Shown here: piece by piece, positions 3,101 through 48,900 of the stretch
Layout of the letters: each line of letters opens with the position of its first letter
Numbering within the stretch: the first letter of the stretch is position 1
Origin: Phoronis australis
Lineage: Eukaryota > Animalia > Phoronida
Assembly: GCA_002633005.1 (NCBI GenBank)
Contig: NMRA01000006.1
Location: 1,508,442-1,572,441 of the forward strand
DNA length: 64,000 nt
Reading direction: 5' to 3'
Made by a program: the position numbers and the translations under genes
Notes under the pieces: generated by a model
What the model saw: only the letters and a program-made list of their open reading frames with translations
What the model was told of the DNA's origin: nothing
Database searches by the model: none

Positions 3101-5012
3101 TGCCACTCATAGACTACAGCACTGGGTGGAGCTTAAGTCAAACAAGATCGATTTTTTCATACACAGACCATGCACCCTACATGCCAACCACAGGAAGACT
3201 TCGATATTTTACATATACAGAACAATACCTTACCTTACAACCATAACCAATCACTGGCAGACTTCAATATTTTTGCATACACAGAACAAGTACCGTACCT
3301 GCCAACCATAACCAATCACTGGCAGACTTCAAAGACTCGTTAGCCACCTCGTAGTGTTCTATGGCTGCTGACATCATTCCTGCCTGAAGACACAAATCAC
3401 CCTGGTGCTTCCGCAGTCGACCTAAGCACTTCTTCTTGAAAGTTCTGGCATAAAAACAAGAGTAGAAAACATGCTGATGAAACACCAACGCCACAGACTA
3501 TGTCTGTGATACAGCCCCCAGTTACATATCAGATCATTTCTTGTTGCTTGTAAACTTTCATCGTAACGTTCGTTTCAGTCACGGGTCTTTTTTACATTCC
3601 ACATTATGGTAGTCATAGAAAAAATACCTTCAGCAAGTATCCGAATAAGCCCAAAAGACACAGGATGTTTGCATAGTGCGACGTCATTTTCTTCAGCTGA
3701 CTATAAATATTCAGAATAAATATGCCAAACTGACCAAAATACCCTCAAAAAGGTAAAATTCCCCTTTCGCGTATCATTTTCATTTAAGCAAACTGGTACA
3801 AATGTCTAAATCAACTAATGTAGATTTCAACTGAGCACTGAAATATTTGAATTCACCAGTGACCCAGTAAGTCTTTTAAAAGTGGCCAGAGCATCCAACT
3901 ATAAATCTTACTCATAATCAAACACTACGTAATTAAAACAAGATCAATTGGAAGTCACTAACCATAACCAATCATAATGAATTCACATCTAAAAAAGTCT
4001 GACCATCTCAGTGGCTACAGTCACTTATAGGGGTCCCGCATTCTGAGAACCAGTTCGATGCCCATTATTCAGTGGACAAAACTGGTTCACAAAATGCAGC
4101 CATCTCAGCATGGTAGTGAACCCACGGTATGCTAGGTCTCAAATGACAGTGCCATACTTTCAACAAATGAAAATTTAGGTACAGCGAAATAACACACCTT
4201 GAATTAGTGTCAGACTCCGAGGCGTTATAGTCTCGCCTTTCAAACGGCGTCATGAGCAGCGGTGGTTTGTCCAGTTTCTCGTACGTTCTGTCGAGCCGCT
4301 TGCTTTCCAGCACCCAAAACAAAGCAAGAGCGAATTCTTCCATCCGCTCTTTCAAGTCTGAGCACTCGTTGACGGAAGGATAAAACCATACCTGAGTTTT
4401 TGAGCTCTCTCGATTAATTTTACTATCACTACGCTCTTCGCCATTTGATGCCATCTCGGAGCTTTTAACCTGTTCACCCCCCACTTCAGAGACCTCAGTA
4501 ATGGTATTTAAATTAGATTCAAAGCTGGAACTCAGGGACTTGCTAGTCTGCTTGAAATTTTCAATTTCTGGAGGCATTAAACTGACTTCCGCCTGCAAAG
4601 ACTGACTGCTATCCTTATTGTTAGGCAAAACGAATGTCCCGTCCTGTTGAAAACCAAACACAACAAGCCTGGAATCGAACAATGTTGAGCGGTACTGTCT
4701 CTTAATCTCCTCATAACGGTTTAACACATTTCCGAGCTGACTGTCTTGTGTACACTTGGCAACACAGACCAAGCCAAGCGCTTTCCTGTGTGCTTGAAAC
4801 TCGCCCCATTCATTATTGGATGCTGAATAACTACGCTTGTATCGTAGGCGTACCCATCTCTGCTGGTCTTGAACACGAACGCTCTGCACCTTATGAATGA
4901 TGTCATAGATACGACCGAAATTTTTCGCGCCTAATTCTGGCTCAATGTACGAGACCAACACAAGGAGGCTCTGGTGATCTTCTACAGACTGCGCATAGTC
5001 AGCTTGGCTCAT
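1..5012 (-). CDS. TRAPPC9: Trafficking protein particle complex subunit 9 (NIBP), 5' part; coding exons 5012-4198, 3444-3299, 2438-2307, 857-757 (tandem TAG/CAG acceptor, alternative start 860), 126-<1
   Basis: Spliced translation reads [20 protein letters not shown]...[13 protein letters not shown]...[23 protein letters not shown]...[16 protein letters not shown].../GTNGLDP...[37 protein letters not shown]...[13 protein letters not shown], which matches my recall of TRAPPC9. All junctions are GT-AG and phase-consistent. An acceptor (tttcag) 5 nt upstream of the ATG implies an upstream non-coding exon. Confidence 0.95.
757..857 (-). CDS. TRAPPC9: TRAPPC9 coding exon 4
   Basis: tagcag|GTACAAATGGC...AGTAAG|gtaaaa; encodes [22 protein letters not shown]. 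Confidence 0.9.
1765..2214. mobile_element. Foldback/MITE with ~190-bp inverted arms and 5-bp TSD ATAAC
   Basis: Termini CAAGGTACCT...AGGTACCTTG; the arms are reverse complements around a short central spacer; ATAAC directly flanks both ends (1760-1764, 2215-2219). Confidence 0.8.
2307..2438 (-). CDS. TRAPPC9: TRAPPC9 coding exon 3
   Basis: cttcag|GTGCTCTAGAAGGC...TCAG|gttggt; encodes [16 protein letters not shown]... Confidence 0.9.
3150..3332 (-). repeat. Degenerate ~64-bp tandem repeat (about 3 units) spanning the TRAPPC9 exon 2 3' end and donor
   Basis: caaccataaccaatcactggcagacttcaa occurs at 3238-3267 and 3303-3332; a third decayed unit lies near 3180-3225. Confidence 0.75.
3299..3444 (-). 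CDS. TRAPPC9: TRAPPC9 coding exon 2
   Basis: tgccag|AACTTTCAAG...GGCAG|gtacgg; encodes [22 protein letters not shown]...DWLWLA. Confidence 0.92.
4018..4098. mobile_element. Short hairpin/MITE family copy (core GAGAACCAGTT...AACTGGTTCTC)
   Basis: The same core occurs at ~17890, ~29990, ~34285, ~47030 and ~62195. Confidence 0.7.
4198..5012 (-). CDS. TRAPPC9: TRAPPC9 first coding exon
   Basis: ORF 4065..5012; the exon ends at donor AAG|gtgtgt at 4198. Confidence 0.93.
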
Positions 5013-8000
5013 TGTGCCTGAAACGTATCATTATTTGTAGGCAAACAAATCAAATTTAGAAATAGTCTATGTGCTGTATAAGGTTAACGAGTAACTGTCT
5101 ACCTTTGTGGATTTTTTTTAAAGAATTCAATGTTCACATATGCAAGTATAGAATTATAACTTTATTTTTCATTGATGCTCATGAAACATTTCTTAAACAT
5201 GTTATTTACTACAAGTAAGTGTCAAGTGTATGAGTAGTTTAATAGATACAATTTCAATTGATTTCATGTCAAATCATTATCGTTTCGAACATTTTCTGGG
5301 ACTTTGATTTTTGAGACTTTTAAAAGCAATATTCAACATCAATTTCTCTAATAAGTGTGCACATTTACTGACATGAAATTCTGCACACTTATTCTGTGGT
5401 ACATGGTGATGGATCCGTGGCCCAGATTTTTTATGTTTCTCCCAAGTTCAGAGATGTGGCCACCAATGACTGAAGCCTCTGTTGCTTTGTCGTAAATTAT
5501 AGTATGACCAATAGTTACCTGCACATTAAAAATCAGATTACATAGGTGAAACAAAAAGTCACAAACAGTTTAGTTTTTCTTAGAAATATTTTAATTAAAA
5601 TTGATTTTGTGGCATTTCAAAGCACAAATTAAGATTTTTCTCACTATAAACACATCGAAAACACCTGTTTTGAAAACCACCATTGATTTTCAGTTCCCAT
5701 TTAAAAGAGGTAAAAATACGTGCAACAAATAATATTTCATAACACTTCCCTCCTTCAAATAGTCCAAGTTCTGTTGAATTTGTATTCAAATAGAAACACT
5801 TTGTTAATTGGTGTGTGGTACTTCAATCTAATTTAAGAACAAGAGCATTCAACACTCTATAAATAAACATGCACTCCAAAATTCCAGACTGCAGGCTCCA
5901 AGTCACAAGAGGTCAGACAATGATAAGAGAATGGCATTTACAACTCAGCAACTGGTGGGAAATTACACACTCTTGAGCACCCAAAATGTAAAGTAGTATC
6001 CACATTTTAAATGAACTGAATGAACAGTTTGTAATTCCTCACAGACTCGATTTGCAAAAGATGAAATGTCCAGGTTTTGGAGCACGAATTTTGCAAAAAC
6101 CAAAACATATTTTATGGTTTAATTTGTTACATAACAGCCGTTCATGAACATTTTACATTCATGAACTATAGGACGACAATAGAATTCAGAGAAAAATGTG
6201 TTGTAAAAGCACAATATTGGCTACACGTTGTGTTAATCCAGTGTCCAAAATTCAAATTTTCATCTACTTTATTATTAATTGTTGCGTTCAAGTTCATTTC
6301 AGATTCGGGGGCAAAACCAAAATAGAGTCGACTGCTGAGTGCCGTACAATATCATAACCAACCAAGCCAAATTAAGGAGGGACTGGCTGAAGTCTTTGAA
6401 CTTTAACCAAGAGTTCCTTAAAACCGTACCTACCTGCTCAAACCAAATGTATCAGGGAAAGCTAACGGGGTCACTGACATTCTTTTGGTACAGCATTATC
6501 AACAGTTTGTTCACTCTCCGATGCTACATAACTAGAATAAACTAGTTTTCAGTTAGTAAAGTTTGCTCGTCAAAATCATTGAAAGACGACTCACTTTTCA
6601 CGTTACTTATTTTGATATTATTAAGTCAAACATAAAAACGCTAAAGAAAGTCCTCAATTGTCGACATGTCAAAAACATTTATGTAAAAATTAAATTGACT
6701 ATTGGACTTGTCGCGGAAATGGTCCCATACTTTGCGCTGCCTGGCGAGAATACCAGAGAACTAACTACGGTTGAACTTCTGGCAATCTGCCTGCTCCGTG
6801 GCAATGAACGCATTATCCAATGTTTCGTATTCCATTGACATGTTACTGATTTATAAGTATTCAGTCACTAACTTACGTTATCTTCAGTAGTTCATAAACT
6901 CTTACGTCTGCGTTAATTTAAAACAGCTTTTTTCATAAAATTAGTCGAGTGTTCATTTTTCCACCTTCTGTAGCACTAGCCAACTGTCAGTAATTGTCCA
7001 CAGAACACAAGATGTTAGTTTCAGCTATGTGTACTTAATCTTAACGCTAAAGCACATCACGTAAGGGAAAAATAGTTCTAATTAAAGAGGAGCCAAAAGA
7101 ATATACGAAAGGATCAACAGTATCACTCACACACACATTGAATGCACCCAGCCCACTAGACGGTTTGGCAAAAGATCCCATGAGAAAATAAAGAACTGAT
7201 TTAAGTGGAAGAAACCTTCATAAAATAATTGAATAAAGTACAAGACGGAGATATCCATGGAAATATTAATATATTTTATCATTTCTGTATAATATGTACA
7301 AACACAACATTGAACAGCGGCTCGCAAGGCAATCAACTGAACCGTTTTAGTGAAACGAGCGGAGAACTCAACAATGGTAGTTTGCATATTTTACGGCATA
7401 CTGCCACAAAAAGAAACGTTATGGTACAGGCACTTTCATAAATAATACCATGAGTCCAAATTTCTGATGTTAAAGTTAACTGAGATATAATATTCATTTA
7501 TCAGAAAGCGAGTAATAAACAACTGAAGTCATTCTTTCAGAAATAACGACACTGGGGAAATAAAGAATTTAAACCCAAAGTTTAAAGCACCACATCACCA
7601 TAGGATTTAGAAAGTAAAAGATTTTTTGATCAAAGCACATTCCTATTAAGCGCTTGACTTTTTTACAAAATTGACATGTGGCAAGATCCCACAGATTTGT
7701 GCGGAGACTATGAGTCCTGTAATCCAGAAAGTGACAAAAGTAATTGCTTGCTAGGTAAACTGACAGTTGATTTTGGACAAATGTAGCTCTTTACTCATAT
7801 CTATAACCTGAACTTGTGGCATCTTGAAGTACAACTAAAATGATGTGATGCATATAAAGGTCAATGATATGAAAACAAAACATTTCAAAGCATTACTCAA
7901 CTAGATGGAAACACAAACAGATGATAACTTTGATGTTTTACAGTAAATAGTGTCACATATTGAATTCTTCTGGGGTAACAGACTACAACCCAAAGTCAAG

Positions 8001-30000: not shown

Positions 30001-33000
30001 AATAACTGCCCGAATTTTGAGAACCAGTTTTCTCCACTGAATCACTGGCATAAACTGGTTCTCAAAATACGGACACGTTATATCAGACTATTGCCACATG
30101 GTCAGTGCTGATGGTGACCATTTGCAGAAAAAAATGCTTACGTCTGATACAAGTCTAAACTTTGGAGGAAGGTGCCTGGTCACAAGACCTGGGTAATGGT
30201 AGGACCTCGCTAAAATCTAGCCAAAATCTCGTGTTCTCGCGAGGTCCTGGGGTTACTAAACTCTACCCTGCAGTTGCCTTGATTGCTGTGCAGGCCTCGA
30301 CATAGCAAGTACACACTCGAAAATACAAGTTGCAATTGTGAAATAAAAAGAAGCAGTGTCTCACGCATAGATTTTCACCAAATGCAAATTTGCGAGAATC
30401 CCAGAATTCCCAAGTCGCCTAACAAGATCTGAGGTCGCCGAAATTGACATAATCGACCAAAAACTTTCATGCTGCACTCCGTTCTCAAAAATATGCGCAT
30501 ACCTCTTCCGTTTCCATTTCTCACGTGAAAAATATGCACCTTTAAATTTCCAACTCAATTCCTCCTGCCAATGAAGAACACAAATGATCAGATACACTGG
30601 AGGTGCATGTTTCATGATCCAATCTTGATCGATTTTGGCTGAACATGTCCGACTTCTGTCTGTTTACTTCCTGTTTTAATTTAAGCGCATGTTTATTGTG
30701 TGCTGGATTTGCAAAATAAATGGAACAACTGTGAACCAAAGGCATTGAATGTAGGAAAACTGTTAGTAATTTAAAGTTTGGAAGTTACCACAAATTTGGA
30801 GGGAAATATTGCCTCACTTTGATACTCGTGGCGGCTTCGGGGATTTTTCCCAGGTCGCTAAACACAATCTGAAGTTGCTTTGGTGACTTGTAGGTCGTCA
30901 AAGCGAGCACTGAAGCAAAAAATTGACCTCACTGTTTATGAGTGAAAATCTGGAGACACAGCGCCGAATACGTCCTCGCTCATATTTTCGAACGGTCATA
31001 TTTTCGTGTGGGCATTTTTACCTGTGTCGAGCACTGCAGTGTGTATGTTTGTTGTGGGGTCAGAAACGTGCAGAACTCGACCACTTGGTCCGCTTCACAC
31101 CGCTTCTCCGTCTCTGGTAACGTTGCCTCTGGCTGTGGTGGGCTGCGCTAGCGTACTATACCTATCTCTCTCAAACAGGCACTAACATTTCCATGGGCGA
31201 AGAGGTGGCCATCAAGCTGGAGTGTGTCAAGACCAAACACCCGCAGTTACACATCGAGAGCAAGTTCTACAAGATGATGCAGGGCGGAGGTAGGTCGCGC
31301 TCTGTTTAACCCCTACCATTAACATACTCACCCGTGGCTGTGGCGGTAGATCATGACAGCCACACTGCCCTGTCCGCCTGTCTGCATCTGTCCGCCTGTC
31401 TTGTCTGTTCAGCGTCTCTTCGTTGGACATCGTCGGCATAGTGCTAATGGCGTGCGCCTGTTGCAATTTCTCCCCAACTAGGTACGGAGGTCCCGACGGG
31501 GGAGGAGGTAGGCATCAAGCTAGAGTGCGCCAAAACGCACCACCCCCAGCTGCACATTGAGGCGCGCATGTACAAAATCCTGCACCCGGGTGGTAAGTCG
31601 ATGACCGTCTGTAATTGTGAAGTGCTGTGTCCGCAACTGACTGTATGTATGTCGCCAATGTGCAACTATCTGTATTTGCTGAGAATGAATGCGTGTGTGT
31701 GCTTGTCATCGACGAGGAGCTGACTGTTTGAGTATTGTTAGCCAACCGTGACTGGTAAGGACTCTGAGCGTGCGTTTTCTGTGATCATGTGACCATGTTG
31801 TCCAGAACTGTGATGCTGAATTTGTTCATAAACTTGACTGCAGGGAATGGATTGCCTGATGTTCTTGTAGTGTGTGCGTTTCTGAATTTGTTTCAGATTT
31901 TTGAAACTGAACAGTACATCTGCAGACATTGGCAACTGTTTTTGGGCTTGGGTAGGCACAAACCATCCTGGCTGATCTTTTGTAGGTAGCCACTCAACGG
32001 TGAACCTTGGTCTATTGTCTTAGTAAAGGAGGAGATCATTTATTAACGATAACTGAAACCTGTTCACACAAGCACCTGAGGAGGTGCCTTTGTTTGTAGA
32101 CCTGGCAGTGGCAACTTATAGGAAATCTATAAGTGTTTGGTTACAGCACACACATTTGTTTGGTACTGTATTGTTTACTGATATGTGGGCAGGATTCCCT
32201 CTAGGGTTTTCTCAGTCAGCTGCTGCTCCTGATGATGTGAATAACGGCAGTGCAGTTGCAGTTGACTCTATTGTTGGGATGGGTCTCTTATAGTGATTCA
32301 GACATCCTGTTTGCTCAAAGGAAATAAGAAATTTTATCCAAAATTTGAAATGAGGTGTATTTAGTCTATGCTCGACTCATAATACTTAAAAAATCCTTGT
32401 TTAATTCTTGAAAGAGTGTCTCATTTTTGAGTTTGATTATTTTCCGCAGTAGTTCACCAACATGAATGTGAAACCATCCAGATTGAGGAAATGCGCCCTT
32501 AGCGAGAGACCCTGATTCTCCGCAATACCGGAAATGGATGTAATTTAGATAATTGGACTTCATTTCTGGAATTAGAGGTTTTGAATGTAATTCAGGTACT
32601 CTAACTAACGTTACCATAATTGAATATTTTTTGTTTTTAATTACAAAAATTAAGAATCAAATTTTGCGATTCTGGCTACAAATCTATCAACGGTCATATT
32701 GCAGGGGACATGTTCAATTATTTTTGAAAATGGTGCTCCTCTTTTTCCAGTTTTGAGAATCAACAAACATGGTTTGCAGCAAGTTATCGATAAAGTGTAC
32801 TCATGTTTATCACTTTGAAATGAAAAAGATTTTGCTAATTAACTGAATTGGGAACTTGGAATTCTATGCTTGCTCACTGGATTTCTCTGTTAATGAAAAT
32901 GGGCCTCTGATGAGTCTAACCTTGCAAGGTGTGATGCGATATCACCTAGAGTAGACTTTGATTAATGAAGAGTTTTTTGTTGCCACGTAACTAGGACGTT

Positions 33001-36000
33001 CTATGCCCTGTCTGCCTAATATTACTGCAAAAAGCAGTAATTAATCACGGTAGATAAAAACTCCACCATTTACAAGCAAGCTGCGACAGAAAGCAGACAC
33101 TGCTAAGGACACTATTGATTTCTGTTAGTTAGTTCACCCCGTGTCCATGCATGTCATTCCAAAGGCTTTCATGCAGGGATTTTGCCAAGTCATTCTACTA
33201 ACTGTTCTTGGGGTTAGGTTCAGTTGTGTAGGGGGGGTTCCTCAACATATTAGTTTAGTTGGTTGATGATTGGTAGACTGTTGATTCTATCAATGGTTTG
33301 CATTGGTGTGAGGTCATGTGGTGTGTTTGAAGATATCCTATCCACCAGCGAGGTTGGTACCGTTCAGTGATCGTGAGGAACAGGTAGGACAGCTCTGGCA
33401 TTAAAGTGGTATCTGGTACAATATTCAGTTGAAAAATCAACAGATGGCTCTGATAATGAATTTACTTTCGAAACATAGATCAACCTAGGATGTTGCCCTT
33501 GCCTCCATGGTTGCCTTGACGACTGCCTGGGTGTGTTTTGTGTTGGTGTTTGTGTGTGTATGTGTTGGTGGTTCTTAAGGTGTGTGGTTGTGCAATCAAT
33601 GTCATCTTACTGTCCATTGTTCAAACAAACTGACTTGATGTGTAATTAAGGAGTGGCTTTTGAGACTGCCGCCAGACGTGCAGCAACCAAAGGGCAGCTT
33701 GCCCCAGATCAGCTGAGCATCAAAATACACAAATGAGTCACCGGTGCTGTGAGGGAAATGATGCGAGTCGATCTCCTGTGGATTAACTATATGAGCTGGG
33801 TGCACATGCACTTAGCTGACTGTTACATTCATAAATATGAAACGGAAAACTGCCATTTGTTGTTGCTGTTCTATTGCGAAACTATAATCGTGGAACGTGT
33901 TGTAAGTTGTATTGTTTAGCAAGTGGAGAAACTATGACCACTGCTTATTCATTTAATGTCATGTTTTGGGGTAAAATCTCTCATTTTTGGATAAAATTTC
34001 CAAATTTACGCTTTTAGATTCTAACATTGTTGTGAATGCGCACAATGTTTCAAAACGTCGTATCTGTGGTACAGTATTTGATCATGGAGATGCATTTAAT
34101 TTGTTTCGTTTCATACTACATGTTTCATGAAAAAATGTTAAAAACAAAATTTCACTTGTCCCCATATTGTGTCCTAAATTGTAGAGAGTTTTCCATAGGT
34201 TACAAACTGCAGATTGCTGTAAAATTTTTACTTAATATCTCTGCTTTCATCATTGCTTGGGCTTTCTGTCCTGTGGTAAAGTAGTCACTGCTTGAACGGT
34301 AATTATCTCTTAGAACCGGTTTTCTACACTGAATAATTGGCATCGAACTGGTTCTCAAAACCTGGGACCCCCTGTAAGTGACTGTAGCCATTCAGCCTAT
34401 AATTTGAGCATTACTTTGAGGTGCTTGTTTTTTCACATTTGCGTCGAAACTTTTGTGTTTTTTTATTTTACCATTTTTGGCAATGGTGCTACAGGCTTTG
34501 TGTTCTTTTTACCATATCTGGGGGGTATACAAAAAGGACTCCTTAAAGGCGAAATCTTAAGACGTGTTTGGTTTATTTATGGACATTCAGAGGAAATTAC
34601 TCAATTGTTAGACATCTTCGGAGACAACTGTTGTTAATTTATTCTCTTGATAAGAAAAGTTCGCCAGCGTGACATTATGATTTCTTTTCAGTGGGTATTC
34701 CCAGTATTAAGTGGAGCGGTACGGAGGGTGATTACAATGTGCTGGTCATGGAACTCCTCGGTCCGAGTCTAGAGGACCTATTCAACTTCTGTAATCGCAA
34801 GTTCAGCACAAAGACAGTATTGCTATTAGCCGACCAGCTAGTAAGTGGACAGTGCCAAGGACGTCGTTCTCACATACGGATGTATTGGGACTGAAATGAT
34901 GCACTGGCGCACAGTTCAAGGGCCCTTTGAGCCCGCACTTAACATCACAATGGGGGTGGGGTTGTGTTTGATTTGTTTGATTTTGGTTTAGGTTAAACTT
35001 TTTGTATAGAACAAAGACTCGACGCTACAATGTCTGTAACTGACATTTTTTTATAAAAACATCAAGTTGGATTTACTTGGAAATCCTGAAGTGCTTTTTG
35101 CTAACATTTGTCCACAGCATTTCGGAGTCCAAAGAAAATACGTTTTCTGAGTCCTGCGTATCAAAATCATTAACAACCGCATTGAAATTAACTGTGCCAG
35201 TAGGCTGTTGCCTCGTTTCAGTCCCGGTGCGGGTGTATGTGTGCACGCGTGCGTAGGTGGTTCCCAGTAGATGACCCATCTCTCTATCGCGTCTGTCTGT
35301 TGTTGGTTTCAGTCGGCATCCCCACCATCAAGTGGTGCGGGGCAGAGGGCGACTACAACGTGTTGGTCATGGAGCTACTCGGCCCCAGCATCGAGGATCT
35401 GTTCAACTTCTGCTCGCGCCGCTTCAGCCTGAAAACGGTGCTGCTGCTGGCCGACCAGCTAGTAAGTGCCCGCCCCGCGTACCCACCCCACCCTGCCCCC
35501 CTTCCCTGTCCCCTGGGGGGTAGTGTGCGGGGGTGGTGGGCGTGCTCTGCATGTTGTCACCGCGTGACTCGATGTTGTATGCATCCTCTCTCACCCACCA
35601 CTTGACGGTTGTAGCCGGCAGTTACACAGGAACGTCCATCCTCTAGAAGCACCTATGGGTGCCTTTCGAGGAAAATTGTCATTGCTATTTTAAGAGGGCA
35701 TTCACATGTAAATTTACCTTTTTTAACTGAAAAGTAACTATTTCTATGAACACTGCTGTTAACTTGACCAATTGAGTTTCAGAAACGACAAAACAGTTTT
35801 CTTCACAAAACCCCCTTGTGCCACCACACATGGACTGCCAGACTAAACCAAGTGTCTTGTGTGAAGTTAGGCTGTTGTGCTATAGCTTCTGCTGCCTTAT
35901 CTGCCATTTTCACATCCACAACCGGTCATCAAAAAGGTCATTCGTTGTGGACGTCCTCATTATCTATGCTAGCACTTCCAGTCCTAGTTGTTGTTATCTC

Positions 36001-39000
36001 TGCTAGATGTTTGCCAACAACCCTGTGTGTGTTTGTGTGGATTTGACTGATAGTTTGTTGATGACTTAACTTCATTGTCCCCCGCCACGCAGTCAAACGC
36101 GAAGGAGGGACATCGTATTCATGTCTGTATGATGCATTGTTTTTGACTTTATATATTAAGAAGGTCAATTCTAATGTCCTTGATGTCATTTTCAAAGCTG
36201 TGAGAAATTTAGTTTTGATCTGAGGGATGCACCTGAGTGATATGTCAGGGTGGGAGGTTTCGATTTCGTTCATGTTGGCAAACTTGGCCTCATCTTCATG
36301 GTAGTAGCGAGTAATTTAAGAGTGGTCGTACATCTCAAGGAATCTGTTGACTGTGGAATTTAGGAGTTGGATTTAGAAAATGTTGGCCCGGCATCTTTAG
36401 AAGGTACAAGCTACCCAAACAATATAGCTCAGTCACCCAAGAACATAGCTCGGCACTCATTAACACGACTCACTGACCGTTAAAGTCAGATCACTGGCTC
36501 CTGAAAAGCCTCACACAACACGACTTAGGCATCCAAATGGCATGGTTCATGTAACACAAACATGACCCAAGGACGAAATGTTCACTTTTTTGTTTTCCAC
36601 TTTGCCATCTAGGGGCAATAAAAAGTACAATGTAGAAATCTCTAAAGACTATTCAGTTCTGTAGCAAAGTGCTACCTTTCCCCTGTCATTCTAGTCGCCA
36701 ATCCGATGGTTACGCACACATCATGAATATTATTAATGTCCAACAGTTTTAAGCCCCTGTCCTATGAATACATTTGTTTAAACAGATTTTTTGTGTAACA
36801 AATGACTACTTGGCTTCACGTGATTTGGTATGCCTGAGCACTTTTTTTCAAGTGTATACAGACCGCCTTGTTGCTAATTGCTGCATTTGACAAGTGTTGC
36901 AGCAAGACTCTTATTGCCGTGGCCTGCCTATCTAGGTTAGTCGGTCCTCACAGTACACATAATCATTCTCATGTTTTGGACGTTTTGTCTCATGCAGCAT
37001 GTGCTTTCCTTAGAATCAAATTTTGCTCCATGAACCACTTTCTCTCTCTTGTCCAGTTGTAGAGTACAGACAAGTTGAGTAAGCTGGCACTCATGGTACA
37101 GTCATTGCAATTCTGGAGCTTTCATATTAAGATAACTGAGCTGATGGTCGTTTTTCAAATGCATTGTATAGTGGTTGTCTGTTCGCAAATGTCCACTGAC
37201 ATCACTGAAAATTTGGAGACATGTAGAAACCAGGGTTGTATTTAGTAGGCGCAACAATTTAGCGAGTTAAGGTTGGATCAGATGACACGTGTCTTGAGAA
37301 ACTTTTGCACAAAAAAATGCTGAAAGTCTGCGTATTCATCCAATGCTTCTGTAGCTTGTGTCAGTTTTATATTTTTATATGATTGTTGTTTTGTCATTTT
37401 CGCACCAAAAAGCAGTTGTGTTCCGGTGATTTCAGTTCTAGTGCATACAAGAGATAAGTGTTGTTTTTTGTCTTGCGGTTTAATACTCATCAAGTTTTCT
37501 GTGATGTCACCGAATGTTTCCAAGCCATCAGCCGTCTGATACTGCATTTGAAAAACGACAGCAGACCGGAAATTCCCCAAATTAATGTACGTGTATGTTA
37601 TCAAGTGCCAAATGTTTGCAAAAAGCAGTCTTGCTAATTGGTTTGCTAAAATGGCTAAATGATTTCAAATGTTTTAGCAAACTGGGCTGAAGCATTTAAA
37701 GGCTATCATGAGCCTACTTTGATACACTGTACAGAGAGCGACGATGGCTGGGGTTCATGAGGATCAAAGTGTGTTCTTAAGCATTAAAGTGCATGAGAAC
37801 GTAAATACCCGCTGTAGCTCGTAAGGAACGAATTGTGCCCGTGAAAAAGAAAACCTTCGTGAGAACTTCCTTTCAGATTGTTTAGGGAGGACTGCTTACC
37901 TTGCTGTATATGCTGGCTTGTGTGTCACATTTAGTGTGTGAAACTACTGTCTGTACCAGTTACATGTGTTGGTTTATTATCGAATGTGCTTTCTTATTCT
38001 TCTAGAGATTCGGTTACACAATGACAATAAAAAGTCAGTCCTAACAATACCTGTTCTGCACAAGTAGAATGTTAGACTGTGCTTAAATCTTCTGTAGGGA
38101 GATCTTCAGTTTTTTTCAAGAAGCAAAAATGTTGCTTGCTCATTAAGTGAAGTTTGATATTTTGGGTGTTCCAAACGACACGCGTGTGCCTTATGTGCAT
38201 TCGCCTTTGAGGGTGTACGTTCTCCCAGACTTTCCTGACTTTATAAGTGTCTGTTCACAAAACATGATAAAATGAAAAGTGCAATCTGTCCGCTCACAGT
38301 ATCCCGATTTCGGTATTCAAATATGGAACCATCTGCTGACATTCCCTGACCAAGGATCATGCAAATCCCAGAATTTGTTACACTCACCAAATATATGAGC
38401 CAACACGCATTGTCAATACGTTTGTCATCGTCCACTTCAGGGAAACTAACCCGCCAGATACTGATCTGCTTACAGTTCCAAGAGGGTCTTTTCGAGACCA
38501 ACCTTGTTGCATTATCACGACACCTGGTGGTTTACTTTGCTTACTTTCTGTGTAGATAAGTCGAATAGAATACATCCACTCCAAAAACTTCATCCACCGT
38601 GACGTCAAGCCAGACAACTTCCTAATGGGCCTGGGCAAGAAGGGCAATCTGGTGTATATCATTGACTTTGGCCTAGCCAAGAAGTACCGGGACGCGCGCA
38701 CCCACCAGCACATCCCCTACAGAGAAAACAAGAATCTCACGGGCACGGCCCGCTACGCCAGCATCAACACACATCTGGGTATAGGTGAGTTGAGAAACGA
38801 CCTCGTTGACGGGAGAGAACGCATGGCGAGTGGATTTGGGGTTGTGGTTTCAGAAATCCGAAGGCCGGAGAAAGTTTTGCACAGCCTTTGAAGCCTTGGT
38901 TCATTATCACACAGTCCACGTAAGAACTAGTTCTCATCAAGGCTCTCTGTAGACTACCGTGCCTTAAAGTTCAGTCGGATCTTGGCTTTGCCTGGACATA

Positions 39001-41772
39001 GTTTTGCAGTTGATCTCAGTATTTCCAACAAGTATGATTTTGCCGTTTTAGAATACAATTTTTGTCCAACTTGTATTGAGTTTTCTTATTGTTTTTACAA
39101 GGACTTTAAGATTTTCACTGTTGAAAGAGTTGCATTCACTGCAGTTCTGTGTCCACATCTGGTCGTGTAACTGTCACCGTTTCATTCCCGCTGTAGAACA
39201 AAGTCGGCGAGATGACATGGAGTCGCTGGGCTACGTCTTCATGTACTTCCTGAAGGGTAGTCTGCCTTGGCAGGGCCTTAAGGCGGCCACCAAGAGACAG
39301 AAATACGAAAGGATCAGCGAAAAGAAAATGTCCACACAGATAGAGGACTTGTGCAAGGGCTTTCCCAGTGAGTATTATTGTCGTAGGAGGTGGTAGTGAC
39401 AAAAATTAATGCGCGACACCTTCTGGGAGGGCCTGTTTATTAAAGGCTTTATGGCCTTGACTAGTTTGGCTTACTTGGTTCTTGTTAGAAAATCCAGTTT
39501 GAAGTATTGGGAGATTTGGCAGCTGTTTAGCAAATTACAATATGTTTGCTTTTAGTAACAATTCGGTGCATTTATTGCAAGAACACACAAACTGCCCATG
39601 GTATGGACATAGGTATTCGAACACGTACATGAAATTTATGTTCCCGTCTTGCTTGAATTTTCTATTTTGGAGAGCATTGGTTATGAATTTTTTTCAGTGC
39701 GTGTATGTAGTTTTGAAGTGCAGGTTTGGAATTTGTACTGCAAATTTGGCGTTTGCTAGATTAGTGGATCCAAGCGGGAAATTTTGAGGCATGGAGTCAT
39801 TTCCACCTCAGAATTTGGTTTGTGGTGTTGTCATTAGTGTAATGCTGTTGAAGAGCCAAAACAATGGGGTCCATTTCAAAATTGTAGCTTTTAAAAATGA
39901 TGCTGCGTTAATGACCACAGTATGATACAACCATCTTAGTAACTGTGCATTTAAACTTTATTAATAAAATGGGTTCTTGAAGTTAACAAAGTCCTCATGG
40001 TTTTAGCATAACATCCATTTCAGTACGAGCACACTTGTGGGTATAACATAATAACACTAAACGAATGTGAATTACGTATAAGAGACATTGAACCAAGAGT
40101 TTTATGCCAAGTCAATTTTTAAAAAATCCGGTAACTCAGCACCATCTGTACTGATACAGAGCTGTCAGGTCTGTGTTGAATGGTTACATGTTGATTGTGT
40201 GTTACGGCAGTCTGAAACGAGGCACAAGTTTTCTCATTCGCATGTAAAATAGAAGACAGAATAAGAATTATAAGTGATGACTTGCTCTGCTTCATGTAAA
40301 TTGTCTTGCATTCAGATGTTCCGGGTGGTTCGTTATTTGTTTTTGCATGCATGTAATCTTTGCCCGCTGATAGATTCGTTGTCTTTTTGTACGATATCGT
40401 AATATCTGATTATAAGTTGTTACTAAAACTTTGTCCCTGTGGCATTTGCAGCCGAGTGTTCGACCTACCTGAACTTCTGCCGGTCGCTACGCTTTGACGA
40501 CAAACCCGACTATTCCTACTTGAGGCAGCTCTTCAGAAACTTGTTCCACCGCCATGGATTTACCTACGACTACATTTTCGACTGGAACCTGCTCAAATTT
40601 GTAAGCAGCACCCTTTGATAAGTTCCCCGTCGCATGGTCCCTCCCTCTCTTTCTCTTTATTAATGTTGTTTTCCGTTGTTGGATTTTACGTGGATTGTTG
40701 TTTATGCCCTCTGTAGGAATGAAGTCCGCAGTGATTTGTTACTACACCAAAGTCTTCAAAGAATTTGACATTGAATGTGTGGATTTTTTCACTTTCTCAC
40801 AATAGAATTTCTGTAATGCTAATGAGCATCACAAGCTGCGTTCAGTGGTGCACCCCATAATATCCAGTATGTATTACTAAAATAAGTCCCTTCCTTGTTA
40901 CTTGGTATGAGCTTGAATTCTTTCTTATTGTTTTCCTTGACGTGCAGTCAAAGATGTGGTGACAGTAATTGGGTCTTAGGTCAGGCTATTAGGGTCAGGT
41001 CAATTTTTCAGCCTTAACTGATTCAGACCCTTGCCTGTCTTCCCAGATAATTAAAAGGCTGATGCTCAAACTCCGTATGTGCTACAGTACATGCCAAAAG
41101 TAATCAGGGAAAATACAATTTCCCCGTTATGATGGGTCAGTATCTGCCATGTCAGGTCATGCTATTTATTCACTTCGAAGGTGAATTTCACTTGCGCTCG
41201 GTCACCTTGATGGGGAAATCCACCTGCGCTCAGTCGCCATGACAGAGAGTTCCGGGTCATTTTGTCTGATTTTTCATGGCGTGAACTGTACCTCACAAAT
41301 GCTTGCTTGTTAATTTTCTGCCTGCCTAGTCCCTTACGTAATCTGTTCAGTGCCCAAATACTTTTCACTTATGCCTGTTGAATGTTGTATGGGTGTTCAG
41401 ATCCCTGATGTGGAGATAGAGCCATTGGCGTTAAGCTTCACAAGTTATGTTGTAATGTTTCATGGTGTTTAGCCTCTGTTGTACTGTGCTGCATGTTGCT
41501 GTCGCTAGAGCATGTTCACCCTCCTTGCGGTGGCTTTTGACCATCTCGACCCCTGTCCCCTAGGGGGGTCTGTCTGCATGCCCGGCCCCGTTCTAGTGCT
41601 GTGTCTGTCTCTCTCGTTTGCAGGGCGGTCCGGGTTCGCGTGCGGCACATGAAGACCGTTGCAAAGACCAGCTGAGAACACCGGTAAACCATCTGCGTGT
41701 TGAGTCACATCGTTTGCCAACGTCCGACTAAACTAATCACCATCCCCTAGCTTGGGTTGGCCGCCATGTTTC

Positions 41773-41804
<32 letters not shown>

Positions 41805-43155
41805 GAAGGGTGCCTGGGTGTCTGGACTAACTAGCATTTTTAACCTGCTTTAGGTTGTGATGTATCAGTCGAAAGATTTGGTTGAGGTTGAGAAATAATC
41901 GGAATGTTAACGTGTGCTTGTGTCCAAAGAGCTTCTGTTGAGAGTTACCGTTCAACATTGTACTAGCAGTATTTAATCCCTTCTACGAGCTAACGTGTAT
42001 TTGCATGTTGTGAACCTGTTGTTCTTTGCCTATGATATGTCGACCTTGTCTACAATGACAAAAATTCCATAAACGCTCGACTAGTTATTCATGTTCTATA
42101 TGCACCTTATCGAAATTTTGGCCGTGCGTCACTCTTTGACTTTGTCCAGTGTTTTGCATGCTGATGTCATTTTTGTCTATGCTATTTTATCTGTGTACGC
42201 GTTTACCCGAGTACTGAGTTCGGTTGCCTTATAGGTTTGCGTATTACGCACTCCTGCTTACGAATTGTGCACTCAGTGTCAATTCCTTTGTTTATGTAAT
42301 GTATAAAAAGTTGCTACTGTTCTTTTAAAAATCTTTTTTAGATCGAATTTCCCAGTTCATTTAGCCTCTGAAAATTCGTATGAGATTTGAAAATGAAGAC
42401 CTACTGTATAAATAAAACAATTTTATCCAGCAGTGAGCCAACGCAGATACTTCAGTAAAACCTGTGCTCACCTTAAAATTCATGGTGTACTTTAACGGAG
42501 CAAAAGTGTTTTAGTTATGATTTGATGCAACTCCCCATGGTAGTGAAAGTCTGTGCTTCTGAGACATTGGTGTGGAATTTGTCCATGCTGGTGACAGGGG
42601 TAGCGATAGTAGTTTCTTGTAGAGACTGATGGAAGTTTTACGTTCCATTTGTTGATTGCAGGGTGGCACTGGTGCTGATGATCGTACGCGTCACCACATC
42701 CACAGCTCAACGACGCGCGCCGTCCAGGGGACGAGTACGGGCCGGATACGCAGCTCCGACCATGCTGCTGGTGCTACAGCTAGTCCATCGGCCGACTACG
42801 GAGGTAGGTCGGGCGTCACTGCTGCAGGGAGTCCTGGTCATCTTGTGGGGGGATCCTGAGTTGCCCGTGTGGGCATTACTGACCGTAGTGAATATTGAGA
42901 CGGGCATGGGTAAAAATAGTGTTATGATTACGTGAAACTGCTTGAATTTTGCAGTTTTGTTTTTGGTTATGGATTTTGGTTTAGTTATTTTACATATCAT
43001 TTTTCTAAGAATTCTCTAACTAATTTATCTTTTGAATTGTGGTATTGAATTTTCTTAAATTATTTTTCAATAAGTAATTTAATTGCAGTCACTTTGAACA
43101 ATTTCTATTCAGTTGTGGCTATCCGTGGTGCTTGTATTCTTATGTGTCTGTGCAT

Positions 43156-43187
<32 letters not shown>

Positions 43188-45920
43188 GCTGTCATTGCTG
43201 TAGAATAGGCGTGTGTTAAGCTTACCCTGATGCACTCTATGCAAACTATGGGCTTCACTGAAACTCTCTAGTCTATGCATCCAAAAGGTCTCCAAAGATC
43301 CTTCACTGCCTCTTTCTGCTAGTGCCTCTCCAGCTTCTCTTGAAATAATTCACCATCACTGTGAATTGAAAAGGGAGCCTTGTAATCCACTGTTCTCATT
43401 CACGTAATGTTGAATGTCGATACATAATCCAAGATATTCTGTAAACGTGTTGGCGCATGTGTTAGTGACCTACTTAATGGTGAGTTTTGTCTTCCTCCTC
43501 CTACTTTGACGAGGTTGTAGCGGTTTGACTGATTTCAGATGTCAAGTTGTTCAGAAGGCATGTGGCTGGCACCTTCTATGTTGTTTGTTCTTAGAAGCAC
43601 CCCTGGTGTCGGCATGAGCATCTTTGGAGACTTGCACTGCTCTATTTTTCCTTTCACCTTTATCTCGCTCTATCTCTCTCTCTCTCTGTGCCACCCGTAG
43701 ACCCTGGCCCTGATCGAGTGCTTGTGCGGCCACAGACTCTGGAGCCGGCAGCCCTCCTTGCCGACCGGCCCCTAACCAGGTCACAGTCCAAAGACAAAGG
43801 CGGTGGTCTGACCCGACAGGCAGACTTGCGACCTTCTGGTCGCACAGCCAGTGCTCAGCCCAGACTGTCTGCCAATATGCACGGTCTACAGCCGGGCTCT
43901 TCAACAAAGAAGCGCAAGGAATCTGATGATTCGCGTCTACGTAGTGGGTCCTCTCGAAAGTCTGCACTTTCAAGGCCAAAGATGACAAATAACTAGCAGC
44001 GCCATCTGTTGTGAAGGAATTATCATTTTGGTTTTGGGACACTTGGTTCTGTTGTAAAAGGGTTGTCCTCATCACCTCCATTGTTGTAACGGGTCAAGAT
44101 ATAACTATATGAATCATGATTTTGAGTTTGTTGAACATCAAATCCAGTAATGTCTGGTGTTAGCCAGCTCTGTTGTACTCAATTTCCTAACACCTCAGTT
44201 TTTAGTAATGTGTAAATACTGTGTGCATATCCGTTTTATTTATTATATTTCTCAATAATTTCTATCAATTTGGAAGTGATCTGTATTGTTCCGTTTTTAT
44301 TGTTTGTGGCCGTTACTATCCACAAGTGCTGTGTATCTGCTGGGCTGAATAAACAAGATGAGTCCAAGAGTAACAGTGCACTTGTTTATGTTGAGTACAC
44401 TAGGAAATGGAGGTTGTCTCAGTCAGAATTTTTTTACAATTGCATTTATTTCATTATCGTTCATGTTGTTCTCTTGAACTGTATCCGTGTACATAATAAT
44501 ATTCCTACAGAGTTCAGGCGTCAGGAGTTCACTGTGGTTCACTGTGAAATGTGTTTGTAACCACTCCAAGTTTTTGTATGAAACGAACTTTGTCATAGTC
44601 TGTGTTGTTATCTGTTTCGTTTGTGTTTAATGTTTGCCACTGTTCAACTTATTTGTTGCCTTTGAACCACTACTGTAGAAAGTGTGAACTTTCATAAACG
44701 CTGATTTGATGAATTTGATGAAGCAGTTTTCAACAGCTGCTGTTACGTATGGCATGAAGACTCCCTCACTATTGACTTAAGTGACAAAACGAGTTGGTAC
44801 CAAGACATAAAAACTTTGTTATCAGACTCTATACACTATGGATGTTAATCACATCTCGAAACGTTAGGCCGGATTTTCTAAATCCATTTGCTAGACATTG
44901 CGAGCAGGGTATGTCGAAATATCCAATACTTAGTCCATGGGTGTTTTACGTAGATTCGAGACACTCGCGTGCTTCACTTGCAATAAGTGGCGACATCTTT
45001 TGACGACTTGCGTTTTTGCAAGTTTCTTTTGTCTGCGAAATACAGCCGTTATCACAGCTGATTGGCCAGTGTATTTTTATGTTCATAGATGATTGGTGAG
45101 ATTATATATATATATTTATATGCGAATCTGACCACTAAATGGTTTCATTACCTGTTGCCAACAGCCAAGCCTTGGGTTGCTGACACTACTTTGTTGAGGC
45201 TGGCGCATGATCACTGTACTAACATTGTTCGTAGTTTTCGTTGAGTAACCCTAACCTACCACCTTAGACTTTGTTCTGATAGTAACTGTAAACGTGTTCT
45301 CTGCTCTGTTCTGTGGTGTTGGCTTAACCTTATTTCTACCCCCAATGACTCAGTGGTGCAAGAAATGGTGACCTCACCTTCTCATGACAGTGAGTAGTGA
45401 TGAACGACTCTGGGTCACAATTTAATGAGAACTGTTCTCTCGTAAAAAAGACGGGTTTCAACTGTCTTTGTGAAATTTTAAATTCACTTTACTTTCTGTT
45501 AGTAGTATTTTGAAGGAGAGGGGTAATTTTTCTTTATTTTGGTTTGCTGGATTTCCAATTGGGTTTCTGTTACTTGGGTTTGCTGACAGTTTGCTTCACT
45601 GGAATTCCCTTTTATCGCGATGGTATGGGCTAGTGCCCTGTCCACCACGTGGTCTTCATGTCTTGCTAACCACCGAGTCGTGGGTTCTGTGTCGTCTGCA
45701 CTACTAATGCATGCTTTGTTAACCTCGTTCTACAGCCGCTCCCTCACCTAGTCGTCCAATCTCTCGTGCAGAACGCGAGCGGCGGATCAGCCAACGGCTG
45801 CACCGTGGCCAGCCACCTCTGATGACTAACCCGGAGCTGGCGCGTGAAGGCACGCGGCTGTCAAGCATGGGCCCGCCGGCGTCCAATACCCGCAAGACCA
45901 GCGCTAGCGCTCGGAGGTGA
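23994..45920 (+). CDS. CSNK1D: Casein kinase I delta/epsilon (doubletime-like); exons 23994-24069, [31179-31289 | 31482-31592], [34692-34840 | 35313-35461], 38556-38784, 39197-39367, 40452-40600, 42662-42803, 45736-45920 (403 aa), plus alternative tails
   Basis: [26 protein letters not shown]...EEVAIKLE...[10 protein letters not shown]...DFG...[15 protein letters not shown]...LPWQGLKA...DWNLLKF. Exon sizes 76/111/149/229/171/149 match the vertebrate CSNK1D/E layout as I recall it. The tail contains the delta/epsilon-type motif [20 protein letters not shown]. This is a co-ortholog of CSNK1D and CSNK1E. Confidence 0.95.
26042..27171 (+). repeat. ~560-bp direct duplication joined by single N (26601); probable haplotype overlap artefact
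   Basis: 26042-26600 versus 26602-27171 differ by a few SNPs and one short indel. Confidence 0.85.
29990..30095. mobile_element. Short hairpin/MITE family copy
   Basis: GAATTTTGAGAACCAGTT...AACTGGTTCTCAAAAT with complementary outer arms. Confidence 0.7.
31179..31289 (+). CDS. CSNK1D: CK1 exon 2a (canonical)
   Basis: aaacag|GC...GGAG|gtaggt; [37 protein letters not shown]; 111 nt. Confidence 0.93.
31482..31592 (+). CDS. CSNK1D: CK1 exon 2b (paralogous alternative exon)
   Basis: caactag|GT...GGTG|gtaagt; [37 protein letters not shown]; 111 nt, same phase, K38 and E52 retained. Confidence 0.85.
34692..34840 (+). CDS. CSNK1D: CK1 exon 3a
   Basis: ttttcag|TG...CTA|gtaagt; [50 protein letters not shown]; 149 nt. 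Confidence 0.9.
35313..35461 (+). CDS. CSNK1D: CK1 exon 3b
   Basis: gtttcag|TC...CTA|gtaagt; [50 protein letters not shown]; 149 nt. Confidence 0.9.
38556..38784 (+). CDS. CSNK1D: CK1 exon 4 (HRD, DFG, activation loop)
   Basis: [44 protein letters not shown]...ASINTHLGI; 229 nt, GT-AG. Confidence 0.95.
39197..39367 (+). CDS. CSNK1D: CK1 exon 5
   Basis: [44 protein letters not shown]...; 171 nt. Confidence 0.95.
40452..40600 (+). CDS. CSNK1D: CK1 exon 6 (end of kinase domain)
   Basis: [49 protein letters not shown]|gtaagc; 149 nt. Confidence 0.95.
41624..41731 (+). CDS. CSNK1D: CK1 candidate alternative exon 7a (short terminal tail; internal donor at 41683 also possible)
   Basis: Strong acceptor ctctctcgtttgcag; phase-0 [35 protein letters not shown]; AATAAA at 42411. 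Confidence 0.6.
   Translation, partial: GGPGSRAAHEDRCKDQLRTPVNHLRVESHRLPTSD
41774..41803 (+). repeat. (CTG)10 microsatellite
   Basis: Seen directly. Confidence 0.95.
42662..42803 (+). CDS. CSNK1D: CK1 exon 7b (tail)
   Basis: ttgcag|GGTGGC...GGAG|gtaggt; [15 protein letters not shown] resembles vertebrate ATRGLPSTASGRLRG. Confidence 0.8.
43156..43188 (+). repeat. (TTG)11 microsatellite
   Basis: Seen directly. Confidence 0.9.
43701..43996 (+). CDS. CSNK1D: CK1 candidate alternative terminal exon 8a (basic, Ser/Arg-rich)
   Basis: Long (TC)n tract then ccgtag|; phase 1 is compatible with exon 7b; ~98 codons open, including STKKRKE; AATAAA at 44348. Confidence 0.65.
45736..45920 (+). CDS. CSNK1D: CK1 terminal exon 8b (conserved delta/epsilon tail)
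   Basis: ctacag|CC...; [28 protein letters not shown]...ARR*, similar to vertebrate [21 protein letters not shown]. Confidence 0.85.
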
Positions 45921-48900
45921 ACAAATACTGTCGTGGTCGTGTGTACCATTGAGGTTGTGTACAGATGTGACTGCCAGTGCTCGCAATAGGAGTCGGACTG
46001 TCGGCTGTGCATTAGATGTGCATAGAATGTGCAGTTGTTGGTAAATGCATCGGAATGTGAACTGTTCATCAGTGTAGCATTTTTGAAATGACTGTAAATA
46101 TATAGGCCACAGACTTATGTGTGAACAGTTCACATTTCTTGACTCGTGAGACTGCTATGAATTTCATACTGTTTTGATTTTATCACTTGTAAGAAGGTCT
46201 GGTACAGGCTGCGAGCTCTAGGTGAACTGCTTGTACTGTAAGTGTGAGTGGACTTCTTTGCAGGATGACTGTACACGGACTGAACATACATCAAGGATAA
46301 TATGATTGGCCAATTACATGGCAGACTTTGCTGTTGGGCATTTGCTTGGTGATCATGGCCAACTGTTCAATGCACACTTATATATGCATCTCATTCATGA
46401 CAATCTGGTGGATAGGTGTTTGAAATGTCCAACTGCACTGTTTGCATAAATACTAAGTCTAAAAGACCATTGCCTTTAGCTCGGAACTGGGACCGGAATC
46501 AGCATTCTAGTCTTGAGCTAGTAGATTAGCAAGAGCTAGTAGACTAGCAAGATCTAGTATATAAAATCCGTTGGTAATTCCGGGAAGTGTTGGTTTCGAA
46601 ACTTTTTCACTGCTGAAGGCATCTCGTAAATATGTCTCTGTTATAGGAATCTTATGTCTGTAATAGTGTCGCTGAATGTGTGTGTATATATATTGCTCCG
46701 TGGGTGAAAGTTGTGTGCAATAGAGGGTTTACTAACAGTGTAATTCTTGCGTTTAAAAGGTCAAGCTCATGCTGAGGTCGCGCGTTGGAATTCTTTTAAC
46801 ATTGTTCTTTATGTGGTCTTTGAGGGAGCCACAGCCATGTTATGTGTATTATAACGTTCTTTTCTGTGCTTTTATTGAATTGCAAGACTTGTAAATAATA
46901 GGCCAGGGAGGAGTCAAAATATCTGTTGAGTGAGAAGTGGGATGGGAGCATTTTAATGCTTAAAAGCTCTAGTCACGAGAGCATGCTTCTTGGGTACATA
47001 GTCATGGTTATGTCAGAACAGTCATGGGCAATAGTCACTTACAGGGGTACCGGTTTTTGACAACCAGTTTGAGGCCCGTTATTCAGTGGGAAAACTGGTT
47101 CTCAAATTGGCGGGACCCCTGTTACTATTACCAAGCTGTGGGGGGAAGTTCGTGATCAAGAACACTTTTAGAATGTACACGCTCTGGACTTATGAGATAA
47201 ACCTCAGCCTATCGTTGTATGTTATGCGCTCAATACGGAATTGAAAAATATGTGTACCTTTTGTGAGGGAGTAGTTATGAAAGTGATGACGTTTTCAAAA
47301 CGTTCTTTAATACACCTTGGTGAGTCGACCAATCTCATATTTTGACGTAAGTGTAGTTTCCTGTGGGGTAAGTGGATCAACCATGCACAGTCCTGTTAAT
47401 TATAACGTTGGAATGGTTTTGCCTGGTATCTATATGCTGTACAGTGTTAAAATCTTTTAGTTGCTATGTTGGTCAATTTGTTCGCTGATTCGACTGTGTA
47501 ATATTTTGTTGTTTAGCTCCGTCTTATTAGTGTATATACCTATTTTGTGCTATCTGTCTATCTATATATAAATTTATTGTTGATAATTTGATCTCATGTG
47601 ACTGGCTTTATTGAACGTCGTACTAGTGATGTTTGAGAAAATCGCAAATTTTAACCGCAAACCAAACGCTACAGAAATCGACTACCTTTTTGCTATGAAT
47701 GTAGAGGCAAATCTTCGGCAAACTTGGTGAATTTGTGTCTTGACACAACCCAGTCTTCGCATCCTGTAGGCTTGCTTCCATGTTGGTTATCAGTATCGTG
47801 AAAATCGGTGCTCTGTATTTCGATAATGGCAAAACTAACGTCACTGCTCACCTACGCACACTGAGGTGGGCCCTATCTTCAGCGAAGTGTTGCAATCAGA
47901 CGAGTGTATGAATTTTTGCTTTGTTTTATTGTGTTCGGAATGGCGATTTCCAAATATAAACTATTCTAGACACGTTTTAGATAGTCTGATGTTCATGGCT
48001 GCCGTCGTTGTGTGTCTGCTCTCATGAATAGATGCAAAAATCAATCTGTGGGGTTTCAGGGTCGCGCTTACTGAACGAAACTCGGGCGCGTGCATAATGG
48101 CCGATTATTTTATATTAAATATGGGCGTGTCCAGTGGGAGAATTTTTCACATTTGCCTTCAACTCATGGTTACCTTCTTCAATGTTAATTAGTCGTGTTG
48201 GTCGGTCTAGCCATAGATTATAGCGAGATGCGCACGTTCGCCTCGTTCAGCATTGTCACGTGGGAAATGCTTTTTGTTCCAGATAGTGACTGATGTATCC
48301 GCGATTGGCGTTATTCTAGCACGTCCATTTTGCGGAAGACGGGCGATTAGGTCCTTGATTTTTTTACATGCACTTTGGTGGTTGAAGGTAATGTTCAGTG
48401 CCGGATTACTCGTAGCTTGGGCACCGCCTCCTCAGTCGTACTGTCCCGTCTTGCAAAACGTAACACTATGTTGGGTAAACATGATAACGACCGCAGGGTG
48501 TTTGACTGAGAGCCTTGAAATTGTGGGTCCTGGGAGGGGTGAACTTTTTGGTTTACCGTCGAGGGCTATTTTGAAGCGACGGGGTGTGACATTTTGACGA
48601 CTGGGAGTTGGCTCCACACCCCTAGGTAGCGCTAGTGTGTTTAATTAACCAGAACTAAAAAGCATTACGGGACACATAGTATGGGCGTAGGGAAGCGGAA
48701 GTCAGCGGGCACATGTCCCAAAATTAAGTCAACACTTCTGCGAGCAAATGTTATGCTATACGTTCTTACCCTGCCAGACTGTGCTTATCATTAGTAATTT
48801 CCAACCTTGCACATTTTTATTGCCCTGGCGTTAAGAACTTTGTGGGTATTGGCGTCCATAGGGTACTCCACCTGTACATAATTAACGTGCATGCGCTGCG

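Follow-up and report, generated by a model that had tools for sequence, protein, structure and literature searches.

Duplicated exons encoding part of a kinase N-lobe are already known from FYN, where they cover the ATP site and are used in a tissue-specific manner, and where the paralogues have each kept one exon (PMC9741552). Among human exon clusters, 484 of 629 are left to regulation beyond steric hindrance, U12 incompatibility and NMD (PMC5740500). Steric hindrance operates when the branch point lies less than 50 nt from the donor (PMC5740500, PMC7969005), and exons 4a and 4b of OGDH are kept exclusive by branch points 25–41 nt from the donor (PMC7969005). Verified distant branch points are followed by a long AG-free zone (PMC1431707).

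Circadian period is set by the catalytic domain of CK1δ/ε, which hardly varies among animals, and the control of isoforms described in the literature consulted sits in the tail. The splicing described for CK1/DBT concerns the C-terminal tail and untranslated 5′ exons, and the term "mutually exclusive" is absent from that text (PMC9794997). T44A, H46R and P47S are short-period alleles that cluster in the N-lobe and keep activity (PMC7012598). Neither PMC9741552 nor PMC5740500 mentions CSNK1 in its main text. The literature searched, with supplements and most subscription journals outside its scope, contained no report of duplicated kinase-domain exons in CK1δ/ε. Here we describe a CK1δ/ε gene of Phoronis australis in which two exon pairs lie inside the catalytic domain, such that one gene probably gives rise to two forms of an enzyme that normally shows almost no variation. 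The window analysed is a stretch of 64,000 nucleotides of contig NMRA01000006.1.

The kinase gene and its duplicated exons

The gene lies on the forward strand; its first coding exon starts at 23994, and it extends to about 45920 (Table 1). The closest solved relatives of the kinase are CK1δ/ε, not α or γ; the best PDB matches are CK1ε for exon 2a (E 2.7e-17) and, narrowly, CK1δ for exon 2b. Exon 5 has 93–95% identity with lophotrochozoan proteins annotated as casein kinase I, CSNK1D or KC1D, the tail is 54% identical to that of Lineus, and both match lophotrochozoans best. A tree built from exons 4–6 and the tail puts the gene among nemertean, brachiopod, annelid and bryozoan sequences and inside no starred group; the exon pattern would suit a lophophorate. 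Exons 1 and 4–6 are single copies within the window. The path 1-2b-3a-4-5-6 is an open frame of 295 codons in which the catalytic set K38, E52, HRD and DFG is intact. The tail is likely spliced alternatively, with a 60-nt cassette and two possible last exons predicted from sequence. The cassette is in frame, with two TGCATG motifs upstream and two ACTAAY motifs downstream.

Table 1. Features of the CK1δ/ε gene in the window
Feature	Position	Strand	Basis or remark
First coding exon, 76 nt of CDS, glycine-rich loop	23994..24069	+	Translation, splice sites
Exon 2a, 111 nt, N28/F55 (epsilon-like) type	31179..31289	+	Near-identical to Lingula exon 2
Spacer intron 2a/2b, 192 nt, 55% GC	31290..31481	+	
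Branch-point-like/STAR-protein-like motif cluster	31304..31331	+	Candidate regulatory element
Candidate ordinary branch point of 2b, A31447	31442..31448	+	34 nt from acceptor, AG-free between
Exon 2b, 111 nt, diverged copy	31482..31592	+	V29, T31, G36, H45, M55, I58, L59, H60, P61
Exon 3a, 149 nt	34692..34840	+	RNA: joined from 2b, onward to exon 4
Exon 3b, 149 nt	35313..35461	+	Second duplicated pair, with 3a
Exon 4, catalytic loop/DFG/activation loop, single copy	38556..38784	+	Read ends behind 3a match
Exon 5, single copy	39197..39367	+	
Exon 6, single copy	40452..40600	+	
Likely 60-nt cassette exon, tail start	41624..41683	+	Inferred from splice sites, frame
Tail exon	42662..42803	+	Resembles tails of Lineus and others
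Possible alternative last coding exon	43701..43996	+	Inferred, in frame behind tail exon
Likely last coding exon	45736..45920	+	Conserved tail motif

The preliminary description had noted that exon 2b differs from 2a at 14 of 37 residues; all the changes that it named are present, and the complete set numbers 14. Exon 2b is preceded by TAG and followed by GTAAGT, in phase 1/1, and 2a has the same length and phase. The two exons have 71 of 111 nt and 22 of 36 residues in common (tblastn E 3e-13 within the window), and there is no third copy of exon 2 in the 64-kb window. Fourteen of the 36 full codons differ between them (numbering from the initiator Met): N28E, I29V, S30P, M31T, A36G, V42A, K45H, S53A, K54R, F55M, M58I, M59L, Q60H and G61P. 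K38, E52 and the H46–E52 core (HPQLHIE) are kept, as had been noted.

We take these changes to map to the β2–β3 hairpin, β3 and αC, mainly on the basis of the CK1δ structure. An AlphaFold model of a G36-type relative, not of 2b itself, reached a mean pLDDT of 56.8 from a 32-row alignment. Strands were supported at residues 21–28 and 34–38. The model was unreliable over residues 40–85 (pLDDT below 50), and it therefore says nothing on αC. The motif H60-P61 of 2b was considered as the canonical kinase HPN motif and dropped, being out of register in the alignment. The proximity to period mutations proposed earlier holds in part: T44, H46 and P47 lie in the segment and the changes adjoin them, but the sites themselves are the same in 2b, and it is the neighbours 42 and 45 that change. 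Residue 55 was considered as a determinant of inhibitor selectivity, a role for which no confirmation was found in PMC13637069, PMC8778358 or the other literature searched. A36 contacts ATP and inhibitors, and its earlier placement in the adenine pocket agrees with its description as an ATP-binding residue (PMC8778358).

The exons of the second pair, 3a and 3b, on which the preliminary description is silent, have 42 of 49 residues in common (pS 0.80, pN 0.10). Joining 3a to 3b leads to a stop after 151 residues; to judge by the reading frame, frameshift-NMD could police 3a+3b, unlike 2a+2b. N97 of exon 3a recurs in bryozoans, and its T72 in Lingula and Lineus X2. Lineus has two forms of exon 3 whose difference at residue 72 mirrors that between 3a and 3b. 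The two exon-3 forms of Babylonia, located on different contigs, were excluded from the count.

Elsewhere in the window, a 320-codon open frame on the reverse strand (4065–5027) has no Pfam or PDB sequence match and shows weak CENP-M/small-GTPase-like features in the atlas. Its sequence resembles the N-terminus of TRAPPC9. The AT skew changes sign near 22 kb, which fits a head-to-head pair formed by this frame and the kinase gene. Between 51980 and 55676, direct repeats 98–100% identical and about 1470 nt apart end at single N bases (53275 and 54744); they are probably an assembly or haplotype duplication.

Splicing, age and constraint of exon 2b

Four RNA runs chosen by species label (three of raw reads, one of contigs) were mapped to positions 31300–35300, a stretch whose only exons of this gene are 2b and 3a; about 18–19% of each raw-read run was examined. 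The joint 31592 to 34692, which connects 2b to 3a across a GT..AG intron, was present in each of the raw-read runs, supported by 6, 1 and 15 sense-strand reads (5, 1 and 13 start places), and absent from the contig run. Exon 3a shows good expression and leads on to exon 4: the base after 3a (34841) was the first letter of exon 4 in 84 of 87, 70 of 74 and 24 of 35 reads, giving 84, 70 and 24 reads from 3a to exon 4, and loose read ends behind 3a matched exon 4 in two runs. The first base of 3b, an exon that itself lies outside the mapped stretch, followed 3a in none of the listed rows at 34841 (40 of 65).

The ratio of 2b-3a to 3a-4 reads, two counts taken from different tables, was 0.07, 0.014 and 0.63 in the three runs (chi-square p 4.5e-9; by start places 4e-5). 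The ratio of depth over 2b to that over 3a (0.08, 0.05 and 0.46) agrees with it, with the proviso that some reads from conserved parts may have been dropped in mapping, so that the absolute share of 2b may be inflated. Since the joint occurs in all three raw-read runs and the ratios are unequal, 2b is a real spliced exon, with minor use in two samples and major use in the third. The possibility that 2b is untranscribed, raised in the preliminary description, is thus eliminated. The difference may reflect tissue-specific use. By depth, most 3a transcripts are without 2b in two of the three runs; for this reason a strict coupling of 2a to 3b and of 2b to 3a was rejected, these transcripts being presumed to use 2a. 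Within the 2b-3a intron, positions 34147–34385 hold a short dispersed repeat to which reads of both strands and of many loci map. A similar element was seen by eye near 30030–30100 and 47060–47120.

Between 2a and 2b, synonymous sites are saturated (pS 0.78, pN 0.25), and the introns that flank the two exons are no more alike than shuffled sequences. A recent duplication or an assembly artefact is ruled out by the saturated synonymous sites and unrelated flanks. Constraint was assessed against 70 distinct δ/ε-type exon-2 peptides, gathered partly with 2b as bait. Thirteen columns are invariant in this set and none of the 14 changes of 2b falls there (p 2e-4; p 1.7e-3 without the four columns fixed by our own filter). 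Because synonymous sites are saturated and the invariant columns are all kept, we conclude from these comparisons that 2b is old and constrained, and not decaying neutrally, the other possibility left by the preliminary description. A pseudo-exon or chance open frame is ruled out, 2b being both spliced and constrained.

Exon 2b is also fast-evolving, with a branch length of 1.01 against a median of 0.021 in the exon tree, and seven of its 14 changed residues (E28, P30, A42, H45, M55, H60 and P61) occur in none of the 70 relatives. The long branch and the unique residues also fit relaxed constraint. They would moreover suit a down-regulating exon, which, either added behind 2a or giving a weak or unstable kinase, would lower CK1 output; prolines 30 and 61 are among the unique residues, 2a+2b is in frame, and 2b use is low in two of the three runs. 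However, the retention of every invariant residue despite synonymous saturation is needless for a mere disruptive insert, and the characteristic residues of 2b match the exon of full-length bryozoan proteins. We therefore hold such a down-regulating role to be decidedly unlikely.

Relatives of exon 2

No close orthologue of 2b was found among 1.84 billion representatives, where the best short-exon matches were 72% identical, or in a follow-up search; a word-based homologue search with 2b gave no candidate, which is weak evidence. The peptides with the largest number of 2b states (4–5 of 14) come from exon 2 of two bryozoans, Watersipora and Bugula, and from similar records. The common states are V29, T31, G36, I/V58 and L59, and on sequence grounds we favour orthology of 2b with the bryozoan exon. 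The latter belongs to the sole protein returned per species and differs from 2b by the presence of L44 and the absence of the seven unique residues. In bryozoan-type CK1δ/ε, L44 occupies the site of the human T44A sleep-phase mutation, together with G36.

G36 is found in 8 of the 70 exon-2 peptides, the Watersipora and Bugula proteins included. Its presence in full-length bryozoan CK1 indicates that G36 is a tolerated state, probably compatible with normal function, and weakens the case for a drastic effect of A36G alone. Two exon-2 forms are annotated as RefSeq isoforms in 4 of the 22 species sets compared, these four being heterodont bivalves (Mya, Dreissena, Mercenaria and Ruditapes), and G36 sits in the alternates of Mya and Dreissena. 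One Mya gene model strings both copies together, showing that the Mya copies are tandem. The two bivalve copies are both of the D28/I55/R57 type, are marked by Y41 and stand only 1–3 residues apart, whereas 2a and 2b are 14 apart; the bivalve pair is likely a separate, younger duplication. The recurrence of G36 in alternate exons suggests a tuning role, and the second duplication of this exon, again with G36, hints at a repeated benefit. I58 of Argonauta, considered as an alternative exon, was seen in a single form for this species and was not counted. Haliotis and Gigantopelta have isoforms that lack one glycine where exons 2 and 3 meet, which suggests a 3-nt alternative splice site at this place.

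The bivalve pair bears on the idea that 2b, while genuinely used as an alternative exon, drifts with relaxed constraint, the two kinases being functionally equivalent. This idea draws on the very long branch, the mostly conservative substitutions, the tolerance of G36 elsewhere and the identity of T44, H46 and P47. It would leave unexplained why 2b use differs strongly between samples, why the pair was kept long enough for synonymous saturation, and why exon 2 was duplicated again in heterodont bivalves, with G36 arising in the alternate copy. We consider it quite improbable.

The N28/F55 residues of 2a are like those of human CK1ε, while CK1δ has D28/I55. Residues 28 and 55 travel together in the 70 peptides (27 N/F, 30 D/I, 8 mixed and 5 other, in phylogenetically dependent counts). 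In an exon tree of 36 columns, the N/F clade (97/92) includes 2a but not 2b. The latter groups with the D/I exons of bryozoans at 89/63, which is not firm, and a sister pairing of the two copies is not rejected (p-AU 0.33). E28 and M55 of 2b are one base step from D and I and two from N and F. A descent of 2b from the D28/I55, δ-like type is thus the more likely. One may go further and regard 2a/2b as the remnant of an alternative exon pair, N28/F55 and D28/I55, that dates back to early bilaterians. A single lophotrochozoan gene would then produce both an ε-like and a δ-like N-lobe through splicing, each of vertebrate CK1ε and CK1δ would have retained one of the exons following gene duplication, and a like sorting would have taken place between Lingula and the bryozoans, molluscs and annelids. 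The scarcity of mixed peptides, the placement of 2a and 2b in the tree and the base steps of E28 and M55 speak for such an ancestry; the small number of columns, the dependence of the counts and the surviving 2a-2b sisterhood speak against it, and no second species with both exon types was found in the collected peptides. We view this ancestry as unlikely; if true, it would explain the origin of the N-lobe difference between δ and ε.

Probable choice between 2a and 2b, and comparison with known systems

When 2a is joined to 2b the frame stays open (332 codons), so that frameshift-NMD cannot enforce their exclusivity, as anticipated. The further argument that a 192-nt spacer is long enough to splice and therefore implies an active mechanism stands at most in its conclusion. 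Given the OGDH precedent, the spacer length alone settles nothing, and the spacer sequence that best resembles a branch point (6 of 7 positions) lies 41 nt from the 2a donor. The motif cluster behind this donor contains adenosines at 20, 33 and 41 nt. Such a branch-point match arose there in 106 of 5000 shuffles and three YTNAY motifs in 80 of 5000, the motif having been picked post hoc.

According to the mechanism of OGDH and α-tropomyosin, 2b would branch at the adenosines 20–41 nt from the 2a donor, and U1 and U2 could not both load. The position of the best match, within the range of the OGDH branch points, and the pyrimidine-rich tract behind it (31364–31424, 45 of 61) are consistent with such passive exclusivity, as is the predicted pairing of three of the four YAGs of the spacer (31348, 31358, 31411 and 31440). 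Against it, these four YAGs intervene, one of them predicted to be mostly unpaired, whereas the verified cases are AG-free. A candidate ordinary branch point is moreover available close to the 2b acceptor, the predicted fold of the spacer does not surpass that of shuffled sequences (z -0.88), and the statistics are post hoc. Passive exclusivity therefore appears unlikely to us. Because four YAGs intervene, a protein-guided choice between 2a and 2b is more likely than steric exclusion, and this part of the earlier argument is retained.

Which proteins would guide the choice is suggested only as a lead. The cluster behind the 2a donor resembles STAR/Quaking sites, and SF1 and QKI compete for ACUAA (PMC13004596). 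YTAAC is mildly enriched in both spacers, marginally so (P 0.07 for 2a/2b and 0.02 for 3a/3b), and counts of splicing-factor motifs were not decisive.

Taken together, the most probable explanation is that 2b is an old, constrained tandem copy that is spliced to 3a in a sample-dependent manner, likely in place of 2a, and that the resulting kinase is predicted to be active, with a retuned N-lobe. Exon 2a would be the default. Exon 2b would come into use in certain tissues or states through RNA-binding proteins that act on the GC-rich spacer; the strongest candidate for a regulatory site there is the YUAAC/ACUCAC cluster downstream of the 2a donor. Some cells would then make a 2b kinase with a retuned β2–β3 hairpin, β3 and αC. 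The change likely tunes ATP affinity, N-lobe motion or the choice of partner or substrate, catalysis not being lost. A rare 2a+2b product would be in frame, with a doubled β3–αC segment, and likely misfolded. The 3a/3b pair would offer a second choice, which frameshift-NMD could police. Splicing would in this way swap part of the ATP-binding lobe next to T44, H46 and P47, and provide a natural pair of enzymes, the same elsewhere, with which to ask how the β3–αC segment contributes to substrate choice, period and inhibitor selectivity.

Exons 2a and 2b match tandem duplicated mutually exclusive exons in homology, adjacency, length, phase, canonical splice sites and splicing of the alternative copy. 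They share with OGDH 4a/4b and Tpm1 2/3 a short spacer, branch-like adenosines less than 50 nt from the donor and a pyrimidine tract behind, but differ from them by the absence of an AG exclusion zone and the presence of a candidate proximal branch point. Docking/selector clusters of the Dscam type have conserved, competing intronic helices; the helices predicted here are only short ones, of 8–13 bp. Structure matches and intact catalytic motifs assign the enzyme to the CK1δ/ε–Doubletime group (CSNK1D, CSNK1E, fly dbt), whose described splicing lies outside the catalytic domain, unlike the two pairs found here. Among CK1 genes, the closest parallel is that of the heterodont bivalves, with two exon-2 versions; the bivalve and Lineus isoforms are already in RefSeq. 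The FynT/FynB exons of FYN are likewise homologous, of the same length, placed over part of the ATP-binding N-lobe and unevenly used between samples. The Phoronis gene differs from FYN in encoding a Ser/Thr kinase of the CK1 family, in belonging to an invertebrate and in having two adjacent pairs.
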